Below are positions 3,210 through 35,933 of a DNA stretch of 64,000 nucleotides, piece by piece; positions within the stretch are counted from its first letter, which is position 1, and each line of letters opens with the position of its first letter. The notes under the pieces were generated by a model, which was not told the origin of the DNA, did no database searches, and worked only from the letters and a program-made list of their open reading frames with translations. The stretch spans positions 64,001 through 128,000 of the forward strand of contig CAVYTA010000007.1 of the NCBI GenBank assembly GCA_963771355.1, written 5' to 3'. The translations under genes and the position numbers were made by a program. This DNA is from an uncultured Candidatus Rokubacteria bacterium (lineage in GTDB: Bacteria > Methylomirabilota > Methylomirabilia > Rokubacteriales > CSP1-6).

Positions 3210-3330
3210 GGCTCTCTTCCTCCCTCATCCTCTTCGATGTGTCACTTGGCCGAACCCTGCCCGGTCTGAACGAGGGAGAGAGCAAGAGGCGTTCCAGACC
3301 TGACACGCAGCATAAACATAGGATTCTAAA

Positions 3331-3367
3331 GGCTGACATATTCTCAGCCCGGCCTCAAGGGTGTCAA
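3331..3367 (-). promoter_or_regulatory. putative promoter with overlapping palindromic operator
   Basis: TTGACA (3367-3362)-N16-GAGAAT; inverted repeat GGCTGA-N7-TCAGCC at 3331-3349. Confidence 0.35.
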
Positions 3368-3648
3368 AACTCAAGACAAACTGCGAAGGCCGGAGGCGCG
3401 GGTGACGCTTTTTGTAGGGACGAGGGTGCTGGGATACTGCCCTGCCCTCTCCCGGAGAGAACTCCGCCGCGCACGCAGTCTCGCGCGTTGCGCCCCCAGC
3501 AGTACCGGGGTCTCGTCGTCCAACTACTCCCCCAGGTTCCGTCACCCCACTCCGGTCGTGAATCGGGGGAAAGAGTGGCTATACTGAGCCGCAGGGGAAT
3601 GGCGCCGACCCCGGAACCGGTGTCACGGTCAACACAAGGAGATACCCC

Positions 3649-4608
3649 ATGAAGCGAGCGATGGCACTGTTGGTCCTGGCGGTCCTTCTGCTCATCCCCG
3701 CCCTGTGGGCGGCCGATGCGTGGGCGCGAGCGGGAGGCGGAAGCTCGAGCGGTAGCCGCGGCTCGCGGAGCTATTCCGCGCCGGCTTCACCCAGCACTTC
3801 ACCCTCGAGCCGGCCAAGCACACCGGCGTCGAGCTATCAGCAGCCGGCGCCGCAGCGCTCCGGTTGGGGCGCGGGTCTCGGGGGGATGCTCGGCGGCCTC
3901 GTCCTCGGTGGCTTGATCGGAAGCCTTCTCTTCGGCGGCATGGGCCACCTGGGGGGCGGCGGCATCGGCCTCCTCGAGATCGCCATAGTCGGCGCGCTGG
4001 TCTACTTCGGCTTTTCCTATATGCGCCGCCGCCAGCAAGCCGTCGCCGCCGGCCCCGCCGGCTACGCTGATCCCCAGTCGGCCCCGCCGTCATGGAAACC
4101 CGAGCCAACCTCACGGAGCGCCGCCGTGCTGGACGCGCCCGGCGCCGGCGCGGTGGACACGGATCTCACGCGCGGCATCGCCCATATCCGCCAGATGGAC
4201 CCCGGCTTCGACCCCGCTCGGTTCGGTGAGATGGCGTCGGACGTCTTCTTCCGGCTGCAGGGCGCGTGGATGACCCGCGACATGGGTGGAATGCGGGGGG
4301 CGCTCACCGAGGAGATGTACAAGACGCTGCAAGCCCAGTGTGACCAGCTTCGCGCGGAGCGCCGGGTGAACCGCCTCGAGAACATCGCGGTACGCTCGGT
4401 GGAGCCGACGGAGACGTGGCAGGAAGAGGGACGCGACTTCGTCACCGTCCGCTTTCTCGCCAACCTGCTCGACTACACGACGGATGAGAGCGGCACCCAG
4501 CTCGTGGACGGGAACCGGACGGAACCGGTGAAGTTCGAGGAGTTCTGGACCTTCACGCGCCCGGTGGGTCCCGGCGCGTGGCGTCTCTCGGCGATACAGC
4601 AGGCCTGA
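3649..4608 (+). CDS. Tim44 domain-containing membrane protein
   Basis: Signal + RAGGGSSSGSRGSRS, Gly-rich TM segments, C-terminal Tim44-like domain (DPGFD...FEEFWTFTR...WRLSAIQQ). Confidence 0.9.
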   Translation: MKRAMALLVLAVLLLIPALWAADAWARAGGGSSSGSRGSRSYSAPASPSTSPSSRPSTPASSYQQPAPQRSGWGAGLGGMLGGLVLGGLIGSLLFGGMGHLGGGGIGLLEIAIVGALVYFGFSYMRRRQQAVAAGPAGYADPQSAPPSWKPEPTSRSAAVLDAPGAGAVDTDLTRGIAHIRQMDPGFDPARFGEMASDVFFRLQGAWMTRDMGGMRGALTEEMYKTLQAQCDQLRAERRVNRLENIAVRSVEPTETWQEEGRDFVTVRFLANLLDYTTDESGTQLVDGNRTEPVKFEEFWTFTRPVGPGAWRLSAIQQA

Positions 4609-29005: not shown

Positions 29006-29746
29006 TCAGTCGATGCGGCGGGACTTGACGACGTTCGGCCGAAAGGATGGCTGGGCCATCGTCCCACAGTTGGGCGTCAGGAACTTCACGTCCTTCGTTT
29101 CGTTCGGCTTCAAGACGACGTTCTGGCTCCTCGAGAGTTGATCCTCGGAGCAATCCAATGAGCGAACCGCGCCTTGCCAGGTCTGTGTCTGCACGTTCTT
29201 GATCTGAAACAGCGCGTCCACGTTGGTCTTGTTTTGCGGGTTCAGGCCCCAACGATACCGGTATTGGACTCCCTCGCCGCGAGTCCACTTCGACCACTCG
29301 CCGGTCCGGTACGCAGCGGCCGGCGAGGCCGGGGCGGCCGGCGGGGCGGTTGGTGGCGCGGCTGGCGGGGCGGTCGGCGGGATGGCCGGCGCCGCGGACG
29401 CGCGGCGGGCGGCCGCCGCGCGGTTGTCGGCGGCCGTCTGGGCGCGCGTCTCGGGCGTCACGCAGACCACATCGTCAGGGCGCGCCTCCCTCCACACATA
29501 CCCGCCCACGCAGGTGTTCGGCCCGTACGCCCCTCCGCCCGGCTGGCGCCGGGCGCCCGCTTGGGCATTGTCCTCGGCGGCTTGCTGGCGGATCGCCGGG
29601 GTGACGCAGACGTGGTCGCCGGGGACGGCCTCGCGCCAGACATAGCCTTGGCGGCAAGCATCCGACGGAGGCGACTGGGCACGGGTGGTGGCGGCAAGAC
29701 CACAAACGAGCCCCGCGACGAGGAGGCCGGCTGTCATTCGGGTCAT
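29006..29746 (-). CDS. secreted protein with two Cys-bridged GYVWREA repeats, Pro/Ala linker and C-terminal beta domain
   Basis: Signal peptide; C.xGYVWREA.P.D.VCVTP..R.Q.A.DN twice; GGAG RBS. Confidence 0.8.
   Translation of the reverse strand: MTRMTAGLLVAGLVCGLAATTRAQSPPSDACRQGYVWREAVPGDHVCVTPAIRQQAAEDNAQAGARRQPGGGAYGPNTCVGGYVWREARPDDVVCVTPETRAQTAADNRAAAARRASAAPAIPPTAPPAAPPTAPPAAPASPAAAYRTGEWSKWTRGEGVQYRYRWGLNPQNKTNVDALFQIKNVQTQTWQGAVRSLDCSEDQLSRSQNVVLKPNETKDVKFLTPNCGTMAQPSFRPNVVKSRRID
29423..29656 (-). repeat. intragenic duplicated 30-aa module
   Basis: Residues 31-60 and 79-108 of the 29006-29746 protein. Confidence 0.8.
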
Positions 29747-29766: not shown

Positions 29767-29991
29767 CTACTCGCGAAAGACGACGCGCCAGCCGGTGTCG
29801 CCGATCTCGATGCGCTCGACGCGCACGATGGCGAGCGGCTTCCAGGGTGCGGCGAGCAGCGTCGCGAGCGCGGCGTTCTTCCCCGCATTGGTCGTCTGAG
29901 TGTCGGGCTCGAAGAGCGACGTCTCCACAAACGGGGCCGCCGCCGGGCTCGCCGCCGCCGCGGCCCGCTTCCTCGACCTGGGCTTGCCCAT
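29767..29991 (-). CDS. 74-aa hypothetical protein with basic N-terminus
   Basis: ATG 3 nt after upstream stop, GAGGG RBS, fills the gap in the operon. Confidence 0.6.
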   Translation of the reverse strand: MGKPRSRKRAAAAASPAAAPFVETSLFEPDTQTTNAGKNAALATLLAAPWKPLAIVRVERIEIGDTGWRVVFRE

Positions 29992-29994
29992 CGT

Positions 29995-31512
29995 CTAACC
30001 CTCCACGCCCGCGAGGTACACCTTGGTCCGCGCGAGGAGCGCATCATGCTTCCGGATCTCCTCGTCGAGCGCCTTGAGCGCCGATTCGTTCGCGGCGAGC
30101 TGCTCGCGCAGGTACTTCTCGGCGTCGGGCCCGCGCGTGGGGAAGCCCGCGACCGCCGTCGCCGCATTCGCCTGCGCCCGCTTGATCGCGGCGATCGAGA
30201 CGTAGAGCCGCCCGCGATACGTGGTGACCCGGTCGAAGCCCGCGCCGACGTCGAGCGGCCGGCCGGCCGCCCACACCACCTCGAGCGGGCCGCCGGGGTT
30301 GCGCACCCCGAGGAGGTTGGAGGGATAGGTGGCGGGAACAATCCCGCCGAGCGCGTCGAGCTCGCCGACCAGCCCGCTCGCACCCTGGTCGCCCCGGGCG
30401 GTGAGGGCCTTCAGCGTCTGGTACTCGATGGCCAGGGCCGCCGTCGAGGAGAGCCGCACCCCGAGGTCGCCGCGCAGCGCGGGACTCACGCCGCGCTCCA
30501 GCACCGCATGCGTGGGCATGGGCGGCCCGAGCAGCCCCCCCGGTCCGATGGCCATGTCGAAGCCGAGATAGCCGATCACCAGCGGCCGGGCGAAGTCTTC
30601 GGCCAGGGAGATGCTCCCGGACGAGGCGGAGACCACCTTCACGGTGCCGCCAGGGGCGAGATTGCTCCCGCCCACGCGCTCGAGGGCCTTGGCGATCATG
30701 GTGTTGAGCGCGGCGATATTGCTCGTATACGCCTCCAGGGTGTTCTTCTGCGGATCCGCGCCCGCGTTCGGCACCACGAGGTCCACCGGCTTGGCGGCGC
30801 CGCCGGACAGCGTGGCCCCCGAGCTCTTCGAGGACTGGAGCGAGACGTTGATCCGTCCCGTGATGTAGACGCGTGAGACCACGCGGACGTAGTTGGTGCG
30901 CTGAGGATCGCCGCCGTAGTACTGGAGGAAGGCGCGGTTACCGTCGGCCCAGCGCCGGACGTCGTCGTACAGCGAGATGGTATCCACGCCGTAGGTCCGC
31001 GCTTCCGCGATGGTGATGGTGCCCTGGGTGGCGTCGCCGCCGAGCAGGCTCAGCCCCACCGGGATGCCCTGCACGGGGAGCGCCACGTTGAAGCCGCCGC
31101 CCCGACGCGCGGAGAAGGCATAGGTGGGGAAGCTCGCGTTCGGCGCCAGCGTCCAGGAGGCCGGCTTGCCCGGCTCGAGCCAGTGCTTGGGCAGGGGATG
31201 CTGGGGGTCGCCCGCCTCGAAGGACTGGCGATAGAACGTCTCGTAGCCGCGAGGATCGAGCCGGAAGATGAGGTTGTCGAGCGGGAGGAAGCCACGCTCG
31301 CGATAGGTCTTGGCCTGCTCGTCCACCGTCACCTGGACGAGGAAGATGTCGCCGGGCTGGAGGTCCTCGGTCAGCGGATAGACGGGGACGATCTGGCTCG
31401 CACGGATCACCATGGACCAGTCGCGGGCGACGCGCTGAAGCTCGCGGTCGCTCACCGCCCGCGCACATCCCGATGCCGCCAGCGCCAGCAGGATCCAGAC
31501 GATCACGCGCAT
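29995..31512 (-). CDS. lipoprotein with putative gasdermin-like pore-forming domain and C-terminal extension
   Basis: Lipobox LAASG-C16 and GGAGG RBS are seen directly; the fold is inferred from motif order (YPLTEDLQPGD, YVRVVSRVY, PLVIGY). Confidence 0.6.
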   Translation of the reverse strand: MRVIVWILLALAASGCARAVSDRELQRVARDWSMVIRASQIVPVYPLTEDLQPGDIFLVQVTVDEQAKTYRERGFLPLDNLIFRLDPRGYETFYRQSFEAGDPQHPLPKHWLEPGKPASWTLAPNASFPTYAFSARRGGGFNVALPVQGIPVGLSLLGGDATQGTITIAEARTYGVDTISLYDDVRRWADGNRAFLQYYGGDPQRTNYVRVVSRVYITGRINVSLQSSKSSGATLSGGAAKPVDLVVPNAGADPQKNTLEAYTSNIAALNTMIAKALERVGGSNLAPGGTVKVVSASSGSISLAEDFARPLVIGYLGFDMAIGPGGLLGPPMPTHAVLERGVSPALRGDLGVRLSSTAALAIEYQTLKALTARGDQGASGLVGELDALGGIVPATYPSNLLGVRNPGGPLEVVWAAGRPLDVGAGFDRVTTYRGRLYVSIAAIKRAQANAATAVAGFPTRGPDAEKYLREQLAANESALKALDEEIRKHDALLARTKVYLAGVEG

Positions 31513-31543: not shown

Positions 31544-32326
31544 TCAGGTCCCGCCCACCGCTCGCTCGCGCAGCGCCTTCACCATGCCCGCGTCGAAGGC
31601 CTCGCGCACGGGCAGCCCCTCGCGCTCCTGGAACATGCGGAGCGCGGAGCGTGTGAATCGCCCCACCATGCCGTCCACCGGCCCCGGGTTGTAGTCGAGG
31701 TAGACGAGATAGGCCTGGATGGCCCGCACATTGAGGTCCGGCAACGCGCCCGTCACGTACTTCTGCTGCGCGGCGCGCAGCCGCTCGTCGTAGGAGTTCT
31801 TGGCGTAAGCCGGACCATTGTAGGCGGCGGCGAAGGCCGGCCAGTTGTGCGCGCGTAGATGCTTGTCGGCGCCGATCGACGCGATGAAGCGCGCCATGCC
31901 TTCGAGCTGGGCGTTCTCCGACTCCACGAACGCGGCGACCATGGGCTCCACGTCCGGGAATCCCGCCGCCTTGAAGTTCTCCCCCATCACCTGCCCCAGC
32001 CCCCACGAGGCGCTCCGGAGCGCCGCCGCGCGGTCGAGCTTCACCGCCTGCCCCAGCCGATCGTACTCGCGCGTCCCGCCGCTATACCCGCCCCACTGCT
32101 TGTTGCTGATGTCCGGGGCCTGCACGTCGAACTTCCGCTTGGTCAGGCGGCTGAAGTAGTGGCGCTCGAAGAGGATGAGCGGCCGGCGATCGGCCAGGAA
32201 GCCGCAGCCGCGCGTCTCCACGGTGAGGACGGCCCAGAGCTCGGCGGCATGCACGTGGAGCGTATCGCAGGCCGCGGCGATCCCGCCGGCATCGAGCACC
32301 AGGCCCGGTCCTTGAAATGCCGCCAT
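31544..32326 (-). CDS. N-acetylmuramidase (DUF3380) with C-terminal peptidoglycan-binding domain
   Basis: AVLTVETRG, ILFERHYF, SASWGLGQVMGEN, YNGPAY; GPVDGMVGRFTRSALRMFQ; no signal peptide. Confidence 0.9.
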   Translation of the reverse strand: MAAFQGPGLVLDAGGIAAACDTLHVHAAELWAVLTVETRGCGFLADRRPLILFERHYFSRLTKRKFDVQAPDISNKQWGGYSGGTREYDRLGQAVKLDRAAALRSASWGLGQVMGENFKAAGFPDVEPMVAAFVESENAQLEGMARFIASIGADKHLRAHNWPAFAAAYNGPAYAKNSYDERLRAAQQKYVTGALPDLNVRAIQAYLVYLDYNPGPVDGMVGRFTRSALRMFQEREGLPVREAFDAGMVKALRERAVGGT

Positions 32327-32490: not shown

Positions 32491-33738
32491 ATGATCTCGC
32501 AACTGCTCAAGATTCTGCGGGAATCGATCAAAGCGGTGCCGGCGATGAAGTATGCGCTCGCCGTGGCGGGAATCCTGGCCGTGGTGGCGATGGTGGGCGC
32601 CTTCAAGATATCGCCGTCGATGGCGGTGTTCGGCGCCGTCATCACCCTCGTCCTGATGGTGGCGATGGTGATCTTCGCGCGGCTCACCACCACGGCCTCG
32701 CGGCATTTTTTTCTCCCCGTCACGATCATGATGTGGGCATTCCTCGTCATCACGGTGGCGACCGCCTTCCTGTTGTTCACCTCGGCCTTCTTTCAGTGGC
32801 CGCGTGGCCTGCGCGAGCTGATCGGTCCTCCGGTGGCGGCCGTCCCGGCAGCAGGGGTCCCCCACGAGGACACCGGCCCGCTGGTCGCCGCCGCGCAGAG
32901 GCAACGGGAGAACCGCGACTATACCGGCGCCTGGAGCGCCATCACCCGCGCGGTCGCCGGCGCGCCCGGCTCGAAAGCGGCGCGCGAGGAGCAGACGCAG
33001 ATTGCGATGGCGTGGATCCGCGACATGCGGGTCACCGCCCCGGCGACCTTCACGAGCACGGTGATGCCGTTGTCGGAGCACCTGAACCTGGCTTTGGCGA
33101 CGGCGACGGGACCGCTCGCGGCCGACATCCGCGCTCACCTGGGGCACGCGAACTTTCTACGCCACCGGGAAGGCGCCCGTGACCTCAAGATCGCGGAGGA
33201 ATACGCCGCCGCGGTCGCGCTCGACGCCGCCAATCCCTTCGCGCAGGCCATGTGGGGGCACTGGCTCGCCGTTCAGCACCGGCCACTGGAGGAGTTGAAG
33301 GAGCGATTCCGCATCGCCCTCACGTCCGGACGGGAGCGCGCCTATGTGCAGCGAACCCGGCTCGCCGCTCTCAAATGGCACGGGACGCACGAGGCAGACG
33401 TCGAGCGGGTGCGAGTCGCCGATGAGATGCGGCGCAATAACGAGCCAGCCGAGATGGCGTCACGGCTCGAGATCGTCCGGGACGCCTACCCGCGCGGGCC
33501 CACGGGCGCCGAACCGGCGATGCTGGCCGCCTTGCCCGCGGCCGACCACCTCGCGACGTTTCGCTGGCTAGTCGAGGGCCGCGATCTGAGCAACTCCCCG
33601 ATCGAATCCTATTACCTCGCGCGGCTGACGGAAGCGGCCGGGGATTGTGCGGGCGCGGCCACGCTCTATCGCCCGCTCCTCAGCCTCAACTCGACCTTCG
33701 AGGAGAAAATCAAGGCTGGCCTCGCGCGTTGTGAGTAG
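32491..33738 (+). CDS. membrane protein, 3 N-terminal TM helices plus helical TPR-like domain
   Basis: Three hydrophobic segments in residues ~20-105; TPR-like segments (YTGAWSAITRAVAGAP, YAAAVALDAANP). Confidence 0.75.
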   Translation: MISQLLKILRESIKAVPAMKYALAVAGILAVVAMVGAFKISPSMAVFGAVITLVLMVAMVIFARLTTTASRHFFLPVTIMMWAFLVITVATAFLLFTSAFFQWPRGLRELIGPPVAAVPAAGVPHEDTGPLVAAAQRQRENRDYTGAWSAITRAVAGAPGSKAAREEQTQIAMAWIRDMRVTAPATFTSTVMPLSEHLNLALATATGPLAADIRAHLGHANFLRHREGARDLKIAEEYAAAVALDAANPFAQAMWGHWLAVQHRPLEELKERFRIALTSGRERAYVQRTRLAALKWHGTHEADVERVRVADEMRRNNEPAEMASRLEIVRDAYPRGPTGAEPAMLAALPAADHLATFRWLVEGRDLSNSPIESYYLARLTEAAGDCAGAATLYRPLLSLNSTFEEKIKAGLARCE

Positions 33739-33779: not shown

Positions 33780-35933
33780 ATGGCCAGGAAGAAGGTCGCG
33801 AGACGCTCCCGAACTTCACGATCGACCCGGGCTTCCGAGCGGTCTCCGAAGACGACCCGGCCGTCGAGCATTGCCCGGCGGGAGCCCGAGCGCGCCCGCG
33901 GCGCCGGCGCCAAGATGGGGCGCACGCTCGATGCGTTCCCCGACCGGGTGGATATCCGCGACTGGTTTTACCAGCCACCGCTCATCGCCCTGCCCGACCA
34001 GGTGGTGAGCTGCGACCTGGTTCCCACCGTCCTCGACCAGGGGCAGGAGGGGGCCTGCACCGGGTATGCGCTGGCTGCGGTGGTCAACTTCCACCTCTTC
34101 CATCGCCGGATCCGGCGGACGGTCAGCCCGCGCATGCTCTACGACATGGCGCGCCGGTACGACGAGTGGCCCGGCGAGAAGTACGAGGGCTCGTCGGCCC
34201 GCGGCGCGATGAAGGGCTGGGTGTCGCACGGCGTCTGCAATGAAGTCTCGTGGCCGGCCACGCTTCACGGCGCCCAGTTCCTCACGCCCGCGCTGGCAAC
34301 GGAAGCGCAGGAAACACCCGGCGGCGCCTACTACCGCGTCATGCACCGGCAGATCCGCGACATGCACGCTGCGCTGGCGGAGGTGGGCATTCTCTACGTC
34401 ACGCTCATGGTGCACGAGGGCTGGAACGCGCCGGGGCCCACGACGGTGACGGTGGACTACGTCGAGTCGGGCAACTCCAAGAAGCTCACCCTTCCGGTGA
34501 TCCGACGCGCGGGGCGCGCCGACGGCGGGCACGCCGTGGCCATCGTCGGCTACACCCGCGACGGGTTCATCATCCAGAATTCCTGGGGCCCCGACTGGGG
34601 CGCGCGGGGGTTCGCGCTGCTTCCGTACGAGGATTTCATGCTGCACTCCACCGACGTGTGGGTCGCCCAGCTCGGTGTCCCCGTGAAGATGACCGGATGG
34701 ACGGAGGAGGGCGGCGCGGACACCACCGCCGGCCTGCATCGGGCCATGCAGGCCATTCCGCTCGCCGATATCCGCCCGTACGTGGTGGACATCGGCAACA
34801 ACGGCGAGCTGTCGGACTCCGGCTCCTATTGGACCACCACCGCGGACCTCGACCGGCTCTTCAACGAGATCATCCCCGAGCGGACCCAGACGTGGGCCCG
34901 GCGCCGGGTGATGCTGTACCTGCACGGCGGCCTCAACAACGAGCGGGCGGTGGCGGAGCGCATCGTGGCCTTCCGGGATGTGTTCCTCGAGAACGAGATC
35001 TACCCCGTCCACATCATGTGGGAGTCCGGCGTGTGGGAATCGCTGAGCGGGCTCATCGAGGACCTCTTCACCGACGTGGACGAGCGGGCGGGGGCGGTGG
35101 GGGACTGGCTCCGCGGCCTGCGGGACGGGATGGTCGAGGCCAAGGACCGCTCTCTCGAGCTCACCGCCGCCTTGCCCGGTGGGGCGCTCTGGGGCGAGAT
35201 GAAGGAGAACGCCAAGCTGGCCTCGGCGCAGCCGGAGCGCAAGGGCGGGATGCAGCTCATCGCCCAGCACGCGCAGAAGGCGCTCGGCGACGTGGACGAG
35301 GCCGAGCGCAAGAAGTGGGAGCTGCACGTGGTGGGGCACAGCGCCGGGAGCATCTTCGCGGCGCACGCGTTGCGCCACCTCATCGACCTCAAGGTGACGC
35401 TCAAGACCGTGCAGTTCATGGCGCCCGCCATCACCGTGAAGGCGTTCAAGGAGCTCGTGCTGCCGCACGTCAAGTCGGGGGACTGCCCGTCGCCGACCCT
35501 CTACATCCTCAGCGACAGCGGGGAGCTCGACGACGAGGTGGGGCCCTACGGCAAGTCGCTGCTCTACCTGGTGAGCAATGCGTTCGAGGAGAGACGGGGC
35601 ACCCCCATCCTGGGGATGGAGAAGTTCCTGGTCGGCCCCGACGCCGATCCGGAAACGGCCAAGCTGTACCGACCGGGTGGCGCCGGCCATCTGGTCGTGG
35701 CCGGCAAGGGGAAGGATCCGGCCGGACAAAGCGCGAGCGAGACCCACGGCGGCTTCGACAACGATCCCCGGACGCTGAACTCGGTGATGTATCAGATCCT
35801 AGGCGGCCCGCCGAAGCGGCAGTTCCAGGTTCGCGATCTCCAGTTCGAGGACACGAAGGACGCCGCCGCCGGCCGGGGCCGGCGCGCCGGCGCTGCCGCC
35901 AACGGCTGGGGAGCGCACTCGCGGCGAGGCTGA
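33780..35933 (+). CDS. papain-like C1 cysteine peptidase fused to alpha/beta-hydrolase domain
   Basis: DQGQEGACTG, GGHAVAIVGY, IQNSWG; LYLHGGLN, VVGHSAG, HGGFDND. Confidence 0.88.
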   Translation: MARKKVARRSRTSRSTRASERSPKTTRPSSIARREPERARGAGAKMGRTLDAFPDRVDIRDWFYQPPLIALPDQVVSCDLVPTVLDQGQEGACTGYALAAVVNFHLFHRRIRRTVSPRMLYDMARRYDEWPGEKYEGSSARGAMKGWVSHGVCNEVSWPATLHGAQFLTPALATEAQETPGGAYYRVMHRQIRDMHAALAEVGILYVTLMVHEGWNAPGPTTVTVDYVESGNSKKLTLPVIRRAGRADGGHAVAIVGYTRDGFIIQNSWGPDWGARGFALLPYEDFMLHSTDVWVAQLGVPVKMTGWTEEGGADTTAGLHRAMQAIPLADIRPYVVDIGNNGELSDSGSYWTTTADLDRLFNEIIPERTQTWARRRVMLYLHGGLNNERAVAERIVAFRDVFLENEIYPVHIMWESGVWESLSGLIEDLFTDVDERAGAVGDWLRGLRDGMVEAKDRSLELTAALPGGALWGEMKENAKLASAQPERKGGMQLIAQHAQKALGDVDEAERKKWELHVVGHSAGSIFAAHALRHLIDLKVTLKTVQFMAPAITVKAFKELVLPHVKSGDCPSPTLYILSDSGELDDEVGPYGKSLLYLVSNAFEERRGTPILGMEKFLVGPDADPETAKLYRPGGAGHLVVAGKGKDPAGQSASETHGGFDNDPRTLNSVMYQILGGPPKRQFQVRDLQFEDTKDAAAGRGRRAGAAANGWGAHSRRG

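Follow-up and report, generated by a model that had tools for sequence, protein, structure and literature searches.

A predicted gasdermin-fold lipoprotein family with exchangeable helical tails and a linked small partner gene

A 64,000-nucleotide stretch from an uncultured Candidatus Rokubacteria bacterium (contig CAVYTA010000007.1, positions 64,001 to 128,000; hereafter the window) encodes, on the minus strand at 31512-29995, a 505-residue protein designated P0001. The protein very probably combines a gasdermin fold, a lipoprotein signal and a helical tail that is bound by the product of a small adjacent gene. Its family carries a lipobox signal, matches gasdermins in fold searches and conserves two hairpins; its gene is linked to a second, small gene, and tail and partner co-vary and have been exchanged together. 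A total of 880 homologues was found at E<=0.001, and the family comprises 1152 clusters at 50% identity; the observation is confirmed to lie beyond chance. As to function, we tentatively favour an outward-aimed pore-former, with the small gene encoding a cytoplasmic guard (immunity) protein for the exchangeable tail, a possible reading that the rest of this report weighs against four others.

Modelled core and lipoprotein signal

P0001 was modelled with AlphaFold2 (AF2) at full length (mean predicted local distance difference test score, pLDDT, 79; predicted template modelling score, pTM, 0.64) and as residues 16-340 (pLDDT 86, pTM 0.85), and structures in the PDB were searched with Foldseek (both models) and with VIA-align (48,161 chains). 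Rows 1-8 of both Foldseek searches were bacterial gasdermin, the best being 7N50 (E 1.5e-5 for the full-length model, 2.5e-6 for the core). In VIA-align, the core matched 7N50 with Z 10.8 and a root-mean-square deviation of 4.5 A over 206/240 residues. The top 12 rows were bacterial, fungal and animal gasdermins, followed by pneumolysin (Z 5.6) and CDCLs (5.0 and 4.3), and RCD-1 was among the matches. No MACPF/CDC domain was matched in Pfam, and the CDC/CDCL structures were weak matches (Z 4.3-5.6), well below the gasdermins. CsgG and secretin structures were absent among the top 50 rows listed by Foldseek and VIA-align, which does not exclude them. The models thus confirm a gasdermin fold as the predicted whole-domain match of the core, above other folds. 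The relation is a distant one, because identity to gasdermins is 8-13% and the Foldseek TM-scores, at 0.36-0.48, stay under 0.5.

Sequence searches gave no comparable signal. P0001 has no match in Pfam, NCBIfam or PADLOC; searches of PDB sequences with the protein and two profiles gave nothing below E 0.19 and no gasdermin among the matches; and similarity of the family to bacterial gasdermins was undetected with HMMER. The ESM Atlas placed P0001 with unnamed clusters at 0.95-0.96, the only named ones being Trypco2 (0.82) and bGSDM (0.79); the latter, the cluster of the Pfam bGSDM model PF26164, is a lead only.

An earlier note on this DNA had guessed a gasdermin-like fold by eye, and both AF2 models and both structure aligners bear out the guess; gasdermins fill the top rows, and CDC/CDCL structures reach only Z<=5.6. 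The segments that it had picked out (Cys16, residues 41-59, 128-168, 208-237 and 288-318 and an LERG..LRG linker) lie at those residues, and a tail of ~165 aa follows. It mentions neither the minus-strand orientation nor the partner gene (29991-29767), and it also lacks the insert of variable length at the hairpin 2 tip.

The two amphipathic hairpins that it had proposed were recovered as column alternation in 149 aligned rows. In hairpin 1, hydrophobic columns alternate at 141/143/145 and 150/152/154/156, and a 4-residue tip and strict amphipathic alternation are present in 149/149 rows. In hairpin 2, alternation is retained on both arms, and the tip carries an insert of 9-219 aa (median 43; >100 aa in 14/148 rows); residues 230-257 are of low confidence in the full-length model. 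By their sequence pattern, the core would thus contain two amphipathic segments of the membrane-hairpin type. In five planctomycete loci (L027, L033, L036, L038 and L058), the hairpin 2 tip inserts are ~190-210 aa long, charged and coiled-coil-like. The hairpins bear on the possibility that the gasdermin fold persists in a scaffold or adhesin-like surface protein, pore formation having been lost. The low identity (8-13%) and TM-scores (0.36-0.48) would fit such a protein, as would tip inserts that are difficult to thread through a bilayer; the strict hairpin 1 tip and alternation in all 149 diverse rows and the alternation on both arms of hairpin 2 speak against it, and we consider it very unlikely.

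After the last core strand, residues 326-339 are highly conserved and align structurally with the end of 7N50. From the models, they are likely the structural counterpart of the C-terminal peptide of gasdermins, which in bacterial gasdermins is the inhibitory peptide at the C-terminal end (accessible text of 10.1101/2021.06.07.447441).

The N-terminus was assessed with an in-house lipobox rule, not SignalP, which asks for a hydrophobic uncharged stretch followed by G/A/S/N-Cys. By this rule, 232/239 homologues with an intact N-terminus were positive, and 25 of the 264 homologues were outside this count (15 start too late and 10 lack the anchor motif). In genome loci, 77/81 family genes were positive compared with 14/457 other genes of the same loci. 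Cys16 is conserved in more than 90%. This agrees with the Lgt-type lipoprotein signal that had been suggested for P0001, and Sec export followed by Lgt/LspA lipidation at Cys16 may be inferred from the sequence. Tat export was rejected, as the strict motif occurs in 0/264 homologues. Asp at +2 occurs in 10/232 lipobox-positive homologues; under the E. coli sorting rule, which we assume here and which may not hold in these phyla, most family members would go to the outer membrane. The suggestion that Cys16 is the N-terminal lipidated Cys of gasdermins did not hold: in the VIA-align superposition, residue 3 of 7N52, the palmitoylated Cys3 position, aligns near residue 26 of P0001 and not with Cys16.

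Helical tails and the linked partner gene

The P0001 tail is predicted to be helical with pLDDT >90 in the full-length AF2 model. Across the family, helical tails span 55-183 aa, with type A tails measuring 145-183 aa (30 loci) and type B tails 66-89 aa (31 loci). A small gene follows the core gene. Among 73 family genes with enough downstream flank, 68 are followed within <=90 bp by an ATG open reading frame of 40-125 aa, compared with 54/322 other genes in the same loci. Sorting by eye gave 30 loci with type A partners, 31 with type B and some with rarer forms. The P0001 partner has 71 homologues. The partners belong to no Pfam family, and the ESM Atlas returned nothing for the P0001 partner; a stretch resembling a signal-peptide h-region scored in 5/118 partner rows (4/77 and 1/41). 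Profile comparison gave no link between types A and B (probability 0.6%); judged by eye, they have a common strand-helix-strand-strand layout. No partner domain is fused to the core in the 264 core homologues.

Linkage holds at the level of genomes. In the phylum of the window, core gene and partner co-occur in the same 6/251 genomes, all of one genus, where they are adjacent and neither is found alone. Another 10 genomes each have one partner-profile match. Among 201 Thermoanaerobaculia genomes, which probably overlap the loci used for the partner profile, 8/9 type B partner matches lie directly behind the core gene, and the ninth belongs to the L100 locus described below.

Tail class and partner class were the same in 58/58 loci tested by leave-one-out with relatives >50% identical removed; these are 58 of the 61 labelled loci, one tail and two partners having scored weakly. 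In a quick tree of 80 cores, the starred branches force at least three changes for type B and at least seven for type A, and types A and B occur together with a third type within one well-supported verrucomicrobial clade (the C and D labels were given by eye). An approximately unbiased (AU) test on 32/80 core rows rejected type B as a single clade (p-AU 3.6e-33). Because the B cassettes are rejected as one clade, repeated exchange or replacement must have occurred, with no direction given.

The cassette also occurs apart from the gasdermin core. Locus L100 encodes a 389-aa lipoprotein (3263-4602, plus strand) without a gasdermin core and without a Pfam family, which ends in a B tail and has a B partner 9 bp behind it; its N-terminal domain might be a second carrier for the cassette. 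The B-tail profile picked out 28 longer proteins; the core is present in 27 of them, and L100 is the sole exception. In a Candidatus Brocadia locus (L040, 2204-2737, plus strand), the gene behind the core gene encodes a B partner joined to another copy of the B tail. Conversely, three distant homologues (L083 4917-6173, L084 5902-7221 and L101 1546-3414) have a lipobox, no helical tail and no partner. L083 and L084 are on Rhizobium and Cupriavidus plasmids and L101 is in a Thermoanaerobaculia genome; the annotated start of the Cupriavidus gene falls downstream of its lipobox, and the core of L101 is interrupted early on by a coiled-coil-like insert of ~300 aa.

Complex prediction for the mature P0001 protein with its partner gave a score of 0.80, compared with 0.00 for the best of 3 controls. 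The mark for this score, passed by 116/157 solved complexes and 2/215 mismatched pairs, is a rough one based on our own alignments. Between runs, 96% or more of the contacts recur, and the partner has a pLDDT of 82 or higher. Every predicted contact falls within tail residues 354-445, and on the partner side the contacts centre on residues 47-49. The partner is therefore predicted to bind the helical tail. No solved complex resembling the tail-partner pair was found.

Behind the partner in the window, 21 bp past its stop, starts a gene for a 246-aa protein (29006-29746, minus strand) with a signal-like N-terminus and two Cys-rich repeats; it has no Pfam match above the cut-off and is absent behind the gene in close relatives.

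Table 1. Features of the P0001 locus, in window coordinates
Feature	Coordinates	Strand	Remarks
Gasdermin-fold lipoprotein gene (P0001; fold predicted)	29995..31512	-	505 aa; GGAGGAG resembling a ribosome-binding site just 5' of ATG
Type II signal peptide (residues 1-15) and lipobox Cys16	31465..31512	-	
Predicted gasdermin-fold core, residues 16-340	30493..31467	-	AF2, Foldseek, VIA-align
Hairpin 1, residues 128-168	31009..31131	-	Predicted membrane-spanning part ~139-158
Hairpin 2, outgoing arm, residues 208-243	30784..30891	-	R210, R214 invariant; alternation 233/235/237/239
Variable insert at hairpin 2 tip, residues 244-286	30655..30783	-	Long amphipathic helix 254-279
Hairpin 2, return arm, and last core strand, residues 287-322	30547..30654	-	
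GxLGxPIPT segment, residues 326-338	30499..30537	-	G326, L328, G329, P331, T334 85-98% conserved
Variable linker, residues 339-349	30466..30498	-	E339, R340 unconserved; cut site proposed in the earlier note
Helical tail, type A, residues 350-505	29998..30465	-	Predicted partner contact via 354-445
Small partner gene	29767..29991	-	74 aa, without signal peptide; start 4 bp past P0001 stop
N-acetylmuramidase with peptidoglycan-binding domain	31544..32326	-	PF11860, E 1e-57; 31 bp upstream of P0001 start

Distribution and genomic neighbourhood

The family is found in soil and water bacteria. The best 80/135 genome loci come from Planctomycetota, Verrucomicrobiota, Acidobacteriota, Betaproteobacteria, Nitrospirota, Spirochaetota and others, and the closest named relatives of P0001 (81-85% identity) are Methylomirabilota/Rokubacteria assemblies, plus one labelled Verrucomicrobiia. 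P0001 is present in one copy in its own genome, and the gene is also single-copy in each genome searched. The distribution is patchy: the core gene occurs in 6/251 genomes of its own phylum, all of one genus, and in 9/201 Thermoanaerobaculia genomes, and distant members are on plasmids and on one prophage-like contig. In an Anaerolineales assembly (L070, 1932-3583, plus strand), the family gene is split in two pieces and the partner was not seen. Promoter and terminator scans of the P0001 locus were close to chance level, and contigs of three RNA libraries span the whole region in a thin and even manner that cannot reveal transcription.

Across 81 loci, nothing besides the partner is conserved around the gene across lineages. 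Most neighbours are housekeeping genes, and PADLOC gave no match for the gene or five neighbours. The muramidase upstream of P0001 is linked in 5/81 loci, all of one genus. This setting bears on the idea that the protein is a regulated, non-lytic channel or export pore in the producer's own envelope, with a CsgG-like role, for which the small protein would be cargo, plug or adaptor. Lipoprotein anchoring and synteny that is stable within clades would suit such a channel, the large helical hairpin 2 tip inserts are more like exposed loops or stalks than a lytic hairpin, and signal-less hydrolases are encoded upstream in a few loci (the muramidase; an M23 peptidase in L005). Against it, the 81 loci have no conserved secretion machinery or cargo in common and the distribution is patchy (6/251 and 9/201 genomes); CsgG and secretins are also missing from the top 50 rows listed, although this does not exclude them. 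We regard a channel of this kind as unlikely.

A protease domain is encoded in the nearest neighbour in ~11-12/80 loci, 7 of them in one betaproteobacterial lineage; 79 plus ~30 flank genes were scanned directly for this count and the rest via cluster representatives. The types are a divergent caspase-like gene (the 7 betaproteobacteria) and single C14, S41, trypsin, M23 and weak S9-like domains. Bacterial gasdermins, by comparison, adjoin a protease in 43/50 cases (accessible text of 10.1101/2021.06.07.447441). In the seven loci of that betaproteobacterial lineage (L046, L049, L053, L061, L062, L068 and L072), the family gene is divergent from a caspase-like C14 gene, a large CHAT/lipase gene is present in 6 of these loci, and the tails are type B with a CxxxC pair.

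The earlier note had proposed that the tail of an exported gasdermin is an autoinhibitor cut off by a protease at the LERG..LRG linker. In such a model, the protease could be one on the target surface, and the small protein would be only a folding aid. Precedents exist in animal gasdermins, which have a helical C-terminal inhibitor (10.1101/2021.06.07.447441, in part), and in the CDCL lipoprotein toxins, which are activated by proteases of the target (accessible text of PMC11169675), so that no gene linkage would be needed; caspase-like genes flank 8 loci. The linker, however, is unconserved (E339 in 27% and R340 in 12% of 146 rows), and linked proteases are few. The tails are of unrelated types, exchanged or absent, and the strict co-variation of partner and tail is left unexplained. 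Cleavage of this kind is quite unlikely. The interpretation in the note therefore stands for the predicted fold, the signal, the hairpins and a class distinct from the cytoplasmic bacterial gasdermins by its export signal and large tail, and is not supported for the protease-removed inhibitory tail.

Upstream on the plus strand of the window, 33780-35933 encodes a 717-aa fusion of a papain-like peptidase (PF00112) and a probable alpha/beta hydrolase; its N-terminus is basic and rich in Arg/Lys, as in many type A partners. It was rejected as a linked neighbour: it is three genes off and on the other strand, and close relatives have other genes upstream of the muramidase. Between it and the muramidase, 32491-33738 (plus strand) encodes a protein of 415 aa that has several predicted membrane segments and then a TPR-like region and matches no family above the cut-off.

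One family locus was found in viral contigs. This distant member (L082, 4236-5839, plus strand; 28% identity) has a short tail and a 105-aa gene behind it and sits in a low-GC island (42-48% GC), on the strand opposite to the flanking genes. Judged by eye, those flanking genes resemble phage lysis and late-regulator genes. The L082 protein had no match in 50,697 phage records.

This locus and the muramidase are relevant to a suicide switch that works by the mixing of compartments. The tail would latch a periplasmic pore-former, and the cytoplasmic small protein would be the trigger that reaches it when phage lysis proteins or an attack breach the inner membrane, opening pores in the producer's own envelope. 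Such a switch accounts for predicted binding partners that are made in different compartments, and it requires no linked protease; cleavage-independent gasdermins exist (cited in the accessible text of 10.64898/2026.10.05.756811), and one gasdermin, RCD-1, is among the VIA-align matches. The muramidase upstream in the window's genus and the one distant member in a prophage-like low-GC island would also fit. On the other side, tail-less members would require a different latch, the cassette is also borne by an unrelated lipoprotein (L100), neither the gene nor five neighbours match PADLOC and the neighbours are mostly housekeeping genes, and the packing of core against tail is uncertain in the model (pTM 0.64 vs 0.85). 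This makes the switch a rather unlikely account.

Proposed function and comparison with known systems

The outward-aimed pore-former with a cytoplasmic guard is drawn from two precedents, the SitA/SitI layout and the lipid-anchored giant-pore toxins of the BSAP/CDCL group. In this scheme, the lipoprotein would be exported by Sec and lipidated at Cys16 by Lgt/LspA, and it may be delivered by contact or in vesicles, as for the BSAP, CDCL and SitA lipoproteins. It would then oligomerise and insert its two hairpins as a beta-barrel pore into the membranes of other cells, and the tail would be released into the target through the pore. The partner would neutralise the tail in the cytoplasm of the producer and its kin. 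Because the tail-less members have no partner, it would be the tail, and not the pore core, that the partner guards.

Several observations weigh against this proposal. The tails match only generic helical bundles (Z<=7.2 in the full-length VIA-align search), and no catalytic residues are evident in them. The 9-219 residues at the hairpin 2 tip would need to cross the membrane. Close relatives show no polymorphism, and each genus keeps its tail type: in the genus of the window, every close relative is type A, and the Thermoanaerobaculia loci are all type B. No arrays of orphan cassettes were seen, and the gene is single-copy in the genomes searched; stable tails, a single copy and no cassette arrays are unlike the strain-level polymorphic toxins. 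The B tails of betaproteobacteria contain a CxxxC pair, which suggests a disulfide and therefore an exported location. The complex prediction covers the type A pair only, and the predicted interface residues are no better conserved than the rest of the tail (0.29 vs 0.33). Linkage and predicted binding cannot separate an inhibitor from an activator.

In a broader, somewhat speculative reading, the lipid-anchored gasdermin barrel would be a self-delivering weapon or an envelope tripwire whose safety catch is the separation of compartments and not proteolysis. The family could then be a third bacterial gasdermin branch, in which the exchangeable tail controls the barrel or is its payload and the partner is kept in a different compartment. 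If true, gasdermins would be tied to interbacterial lipoprotein toxins and would have a protease-free control mechanism. The structural question is how a gasdermin hairpin bearing a 40-200 residue tip inserts. The portable tail-partner module is unnamed in any library.

The following comparisons draw on the accessible parts of the cited papers. Gasdermins are described as acting inside the cell after proteolysis, and the one outward-acting bacterial branch found in print is the pyroptolysins, in a preprint of October 2026. The present family is large beside both, with ~1,150 clusters at 50% identity, where those papers analysed 50 bacterial gasdermins and 370 sequences of pyroptolysins. No account of a lipoprotein gasdermin family or its partner was found in the literature, most subscription papers and bioRxiv supplements being outside the search. 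Members of the family could be among the unannotated gasdermin-like clusters of 10.1101/2023.03.09.531927 or in the sequence tables for pyroptolysins. Export by itself is made less novel by the pyroptolysin preprint, which shows a gasdermin fold acting from outside cells.

With bacterial gasdermins (7N50, 7N51, 7N52, 8SL0; 10.1101/2021.06.07.447441), the family has in common the predicted core fold (206/240 residues of 7N50), the sequence of elements (helix 1, strands, two hairpins), a Cys near the N-terminus that is lipidated (predicted for the family), and a conserved segment where the C-terminal peptide sits. Bacterial gasdermins have a self-palmitoylated Cys3, end shortly after the C-terminal peptide and are linked to a protease, whereas the family described here has a cleavable signal with an Lgt-type lipobox at another position, a helical tail after the peptide-like segment, a linked partner gene and a long insert in hairpin 2. 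It therefore departs from bGSDM in three respects: the cytoplasmic Cys3 type, the short C-terminus and the linked protease.

Pyroptolysins (10.64898/2026.10.05.756811) are alike in having a gasdermin fold that acts, or here would act, from outside the cell, a C-terminal accessory domain and hosts among environmental Gram-negatives. They end in a sterol-sensing, CDC-like beta-sandwich domain and are mainly solitary genes; the family here has instead a helical tail, a lipobox and a partner gene. As modelled, the helical tail does not correspond to the CDC-like immunoglobulin (Ig) beta-sandwich that defines pyroptolysins, and the word lipoprotein does not occur in the text of that preprint.

The BSAP (PMC12853789) and CDCL (PMC11169675) proteins of Bacteroidota are antibacterial SpII lipoproteins in which a pore domain of the giant-beta-barrel kind is combined with a C-terminal domain that varies. 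The family is like them in its SpII-type signal, as judged by the in-house rule, and CDCL has a linked immunity gene (PMC11169675), as the partner gene here. The fold of BSAP/CDCL is MACPF/CDC, not gasdermin (Z 4.3-5.0 for CDCL vs 10.8), and BcdI, the immunity protein of this group, is itself a lipoprotein at the surface, unlike the signal-less partner described here.

The SitA/SitI system of myxobacteria (PMC5562445) is similar in its lipobox, its exchangeable C-terminal domain and its small neutralising cognate gene directly downstream. The toxin domains of SitA, nucleases among them, differ within a single strain and are passed on through TraA outer-membrane exchange, and no gasdermin core is noted for SitA in the accessible text; the tails here are small, helical and without recognised activity, and they change only at deeper levels. 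The layout of a polymorphic toxin-immunity system is nevertheless present in the P0001 family: an export signal, a conserved carrier and an exchangeable C-terminal domain, together with a cognate small gene directly downstream that is linked to the tail, co-varies with it and is predicted to bind it.

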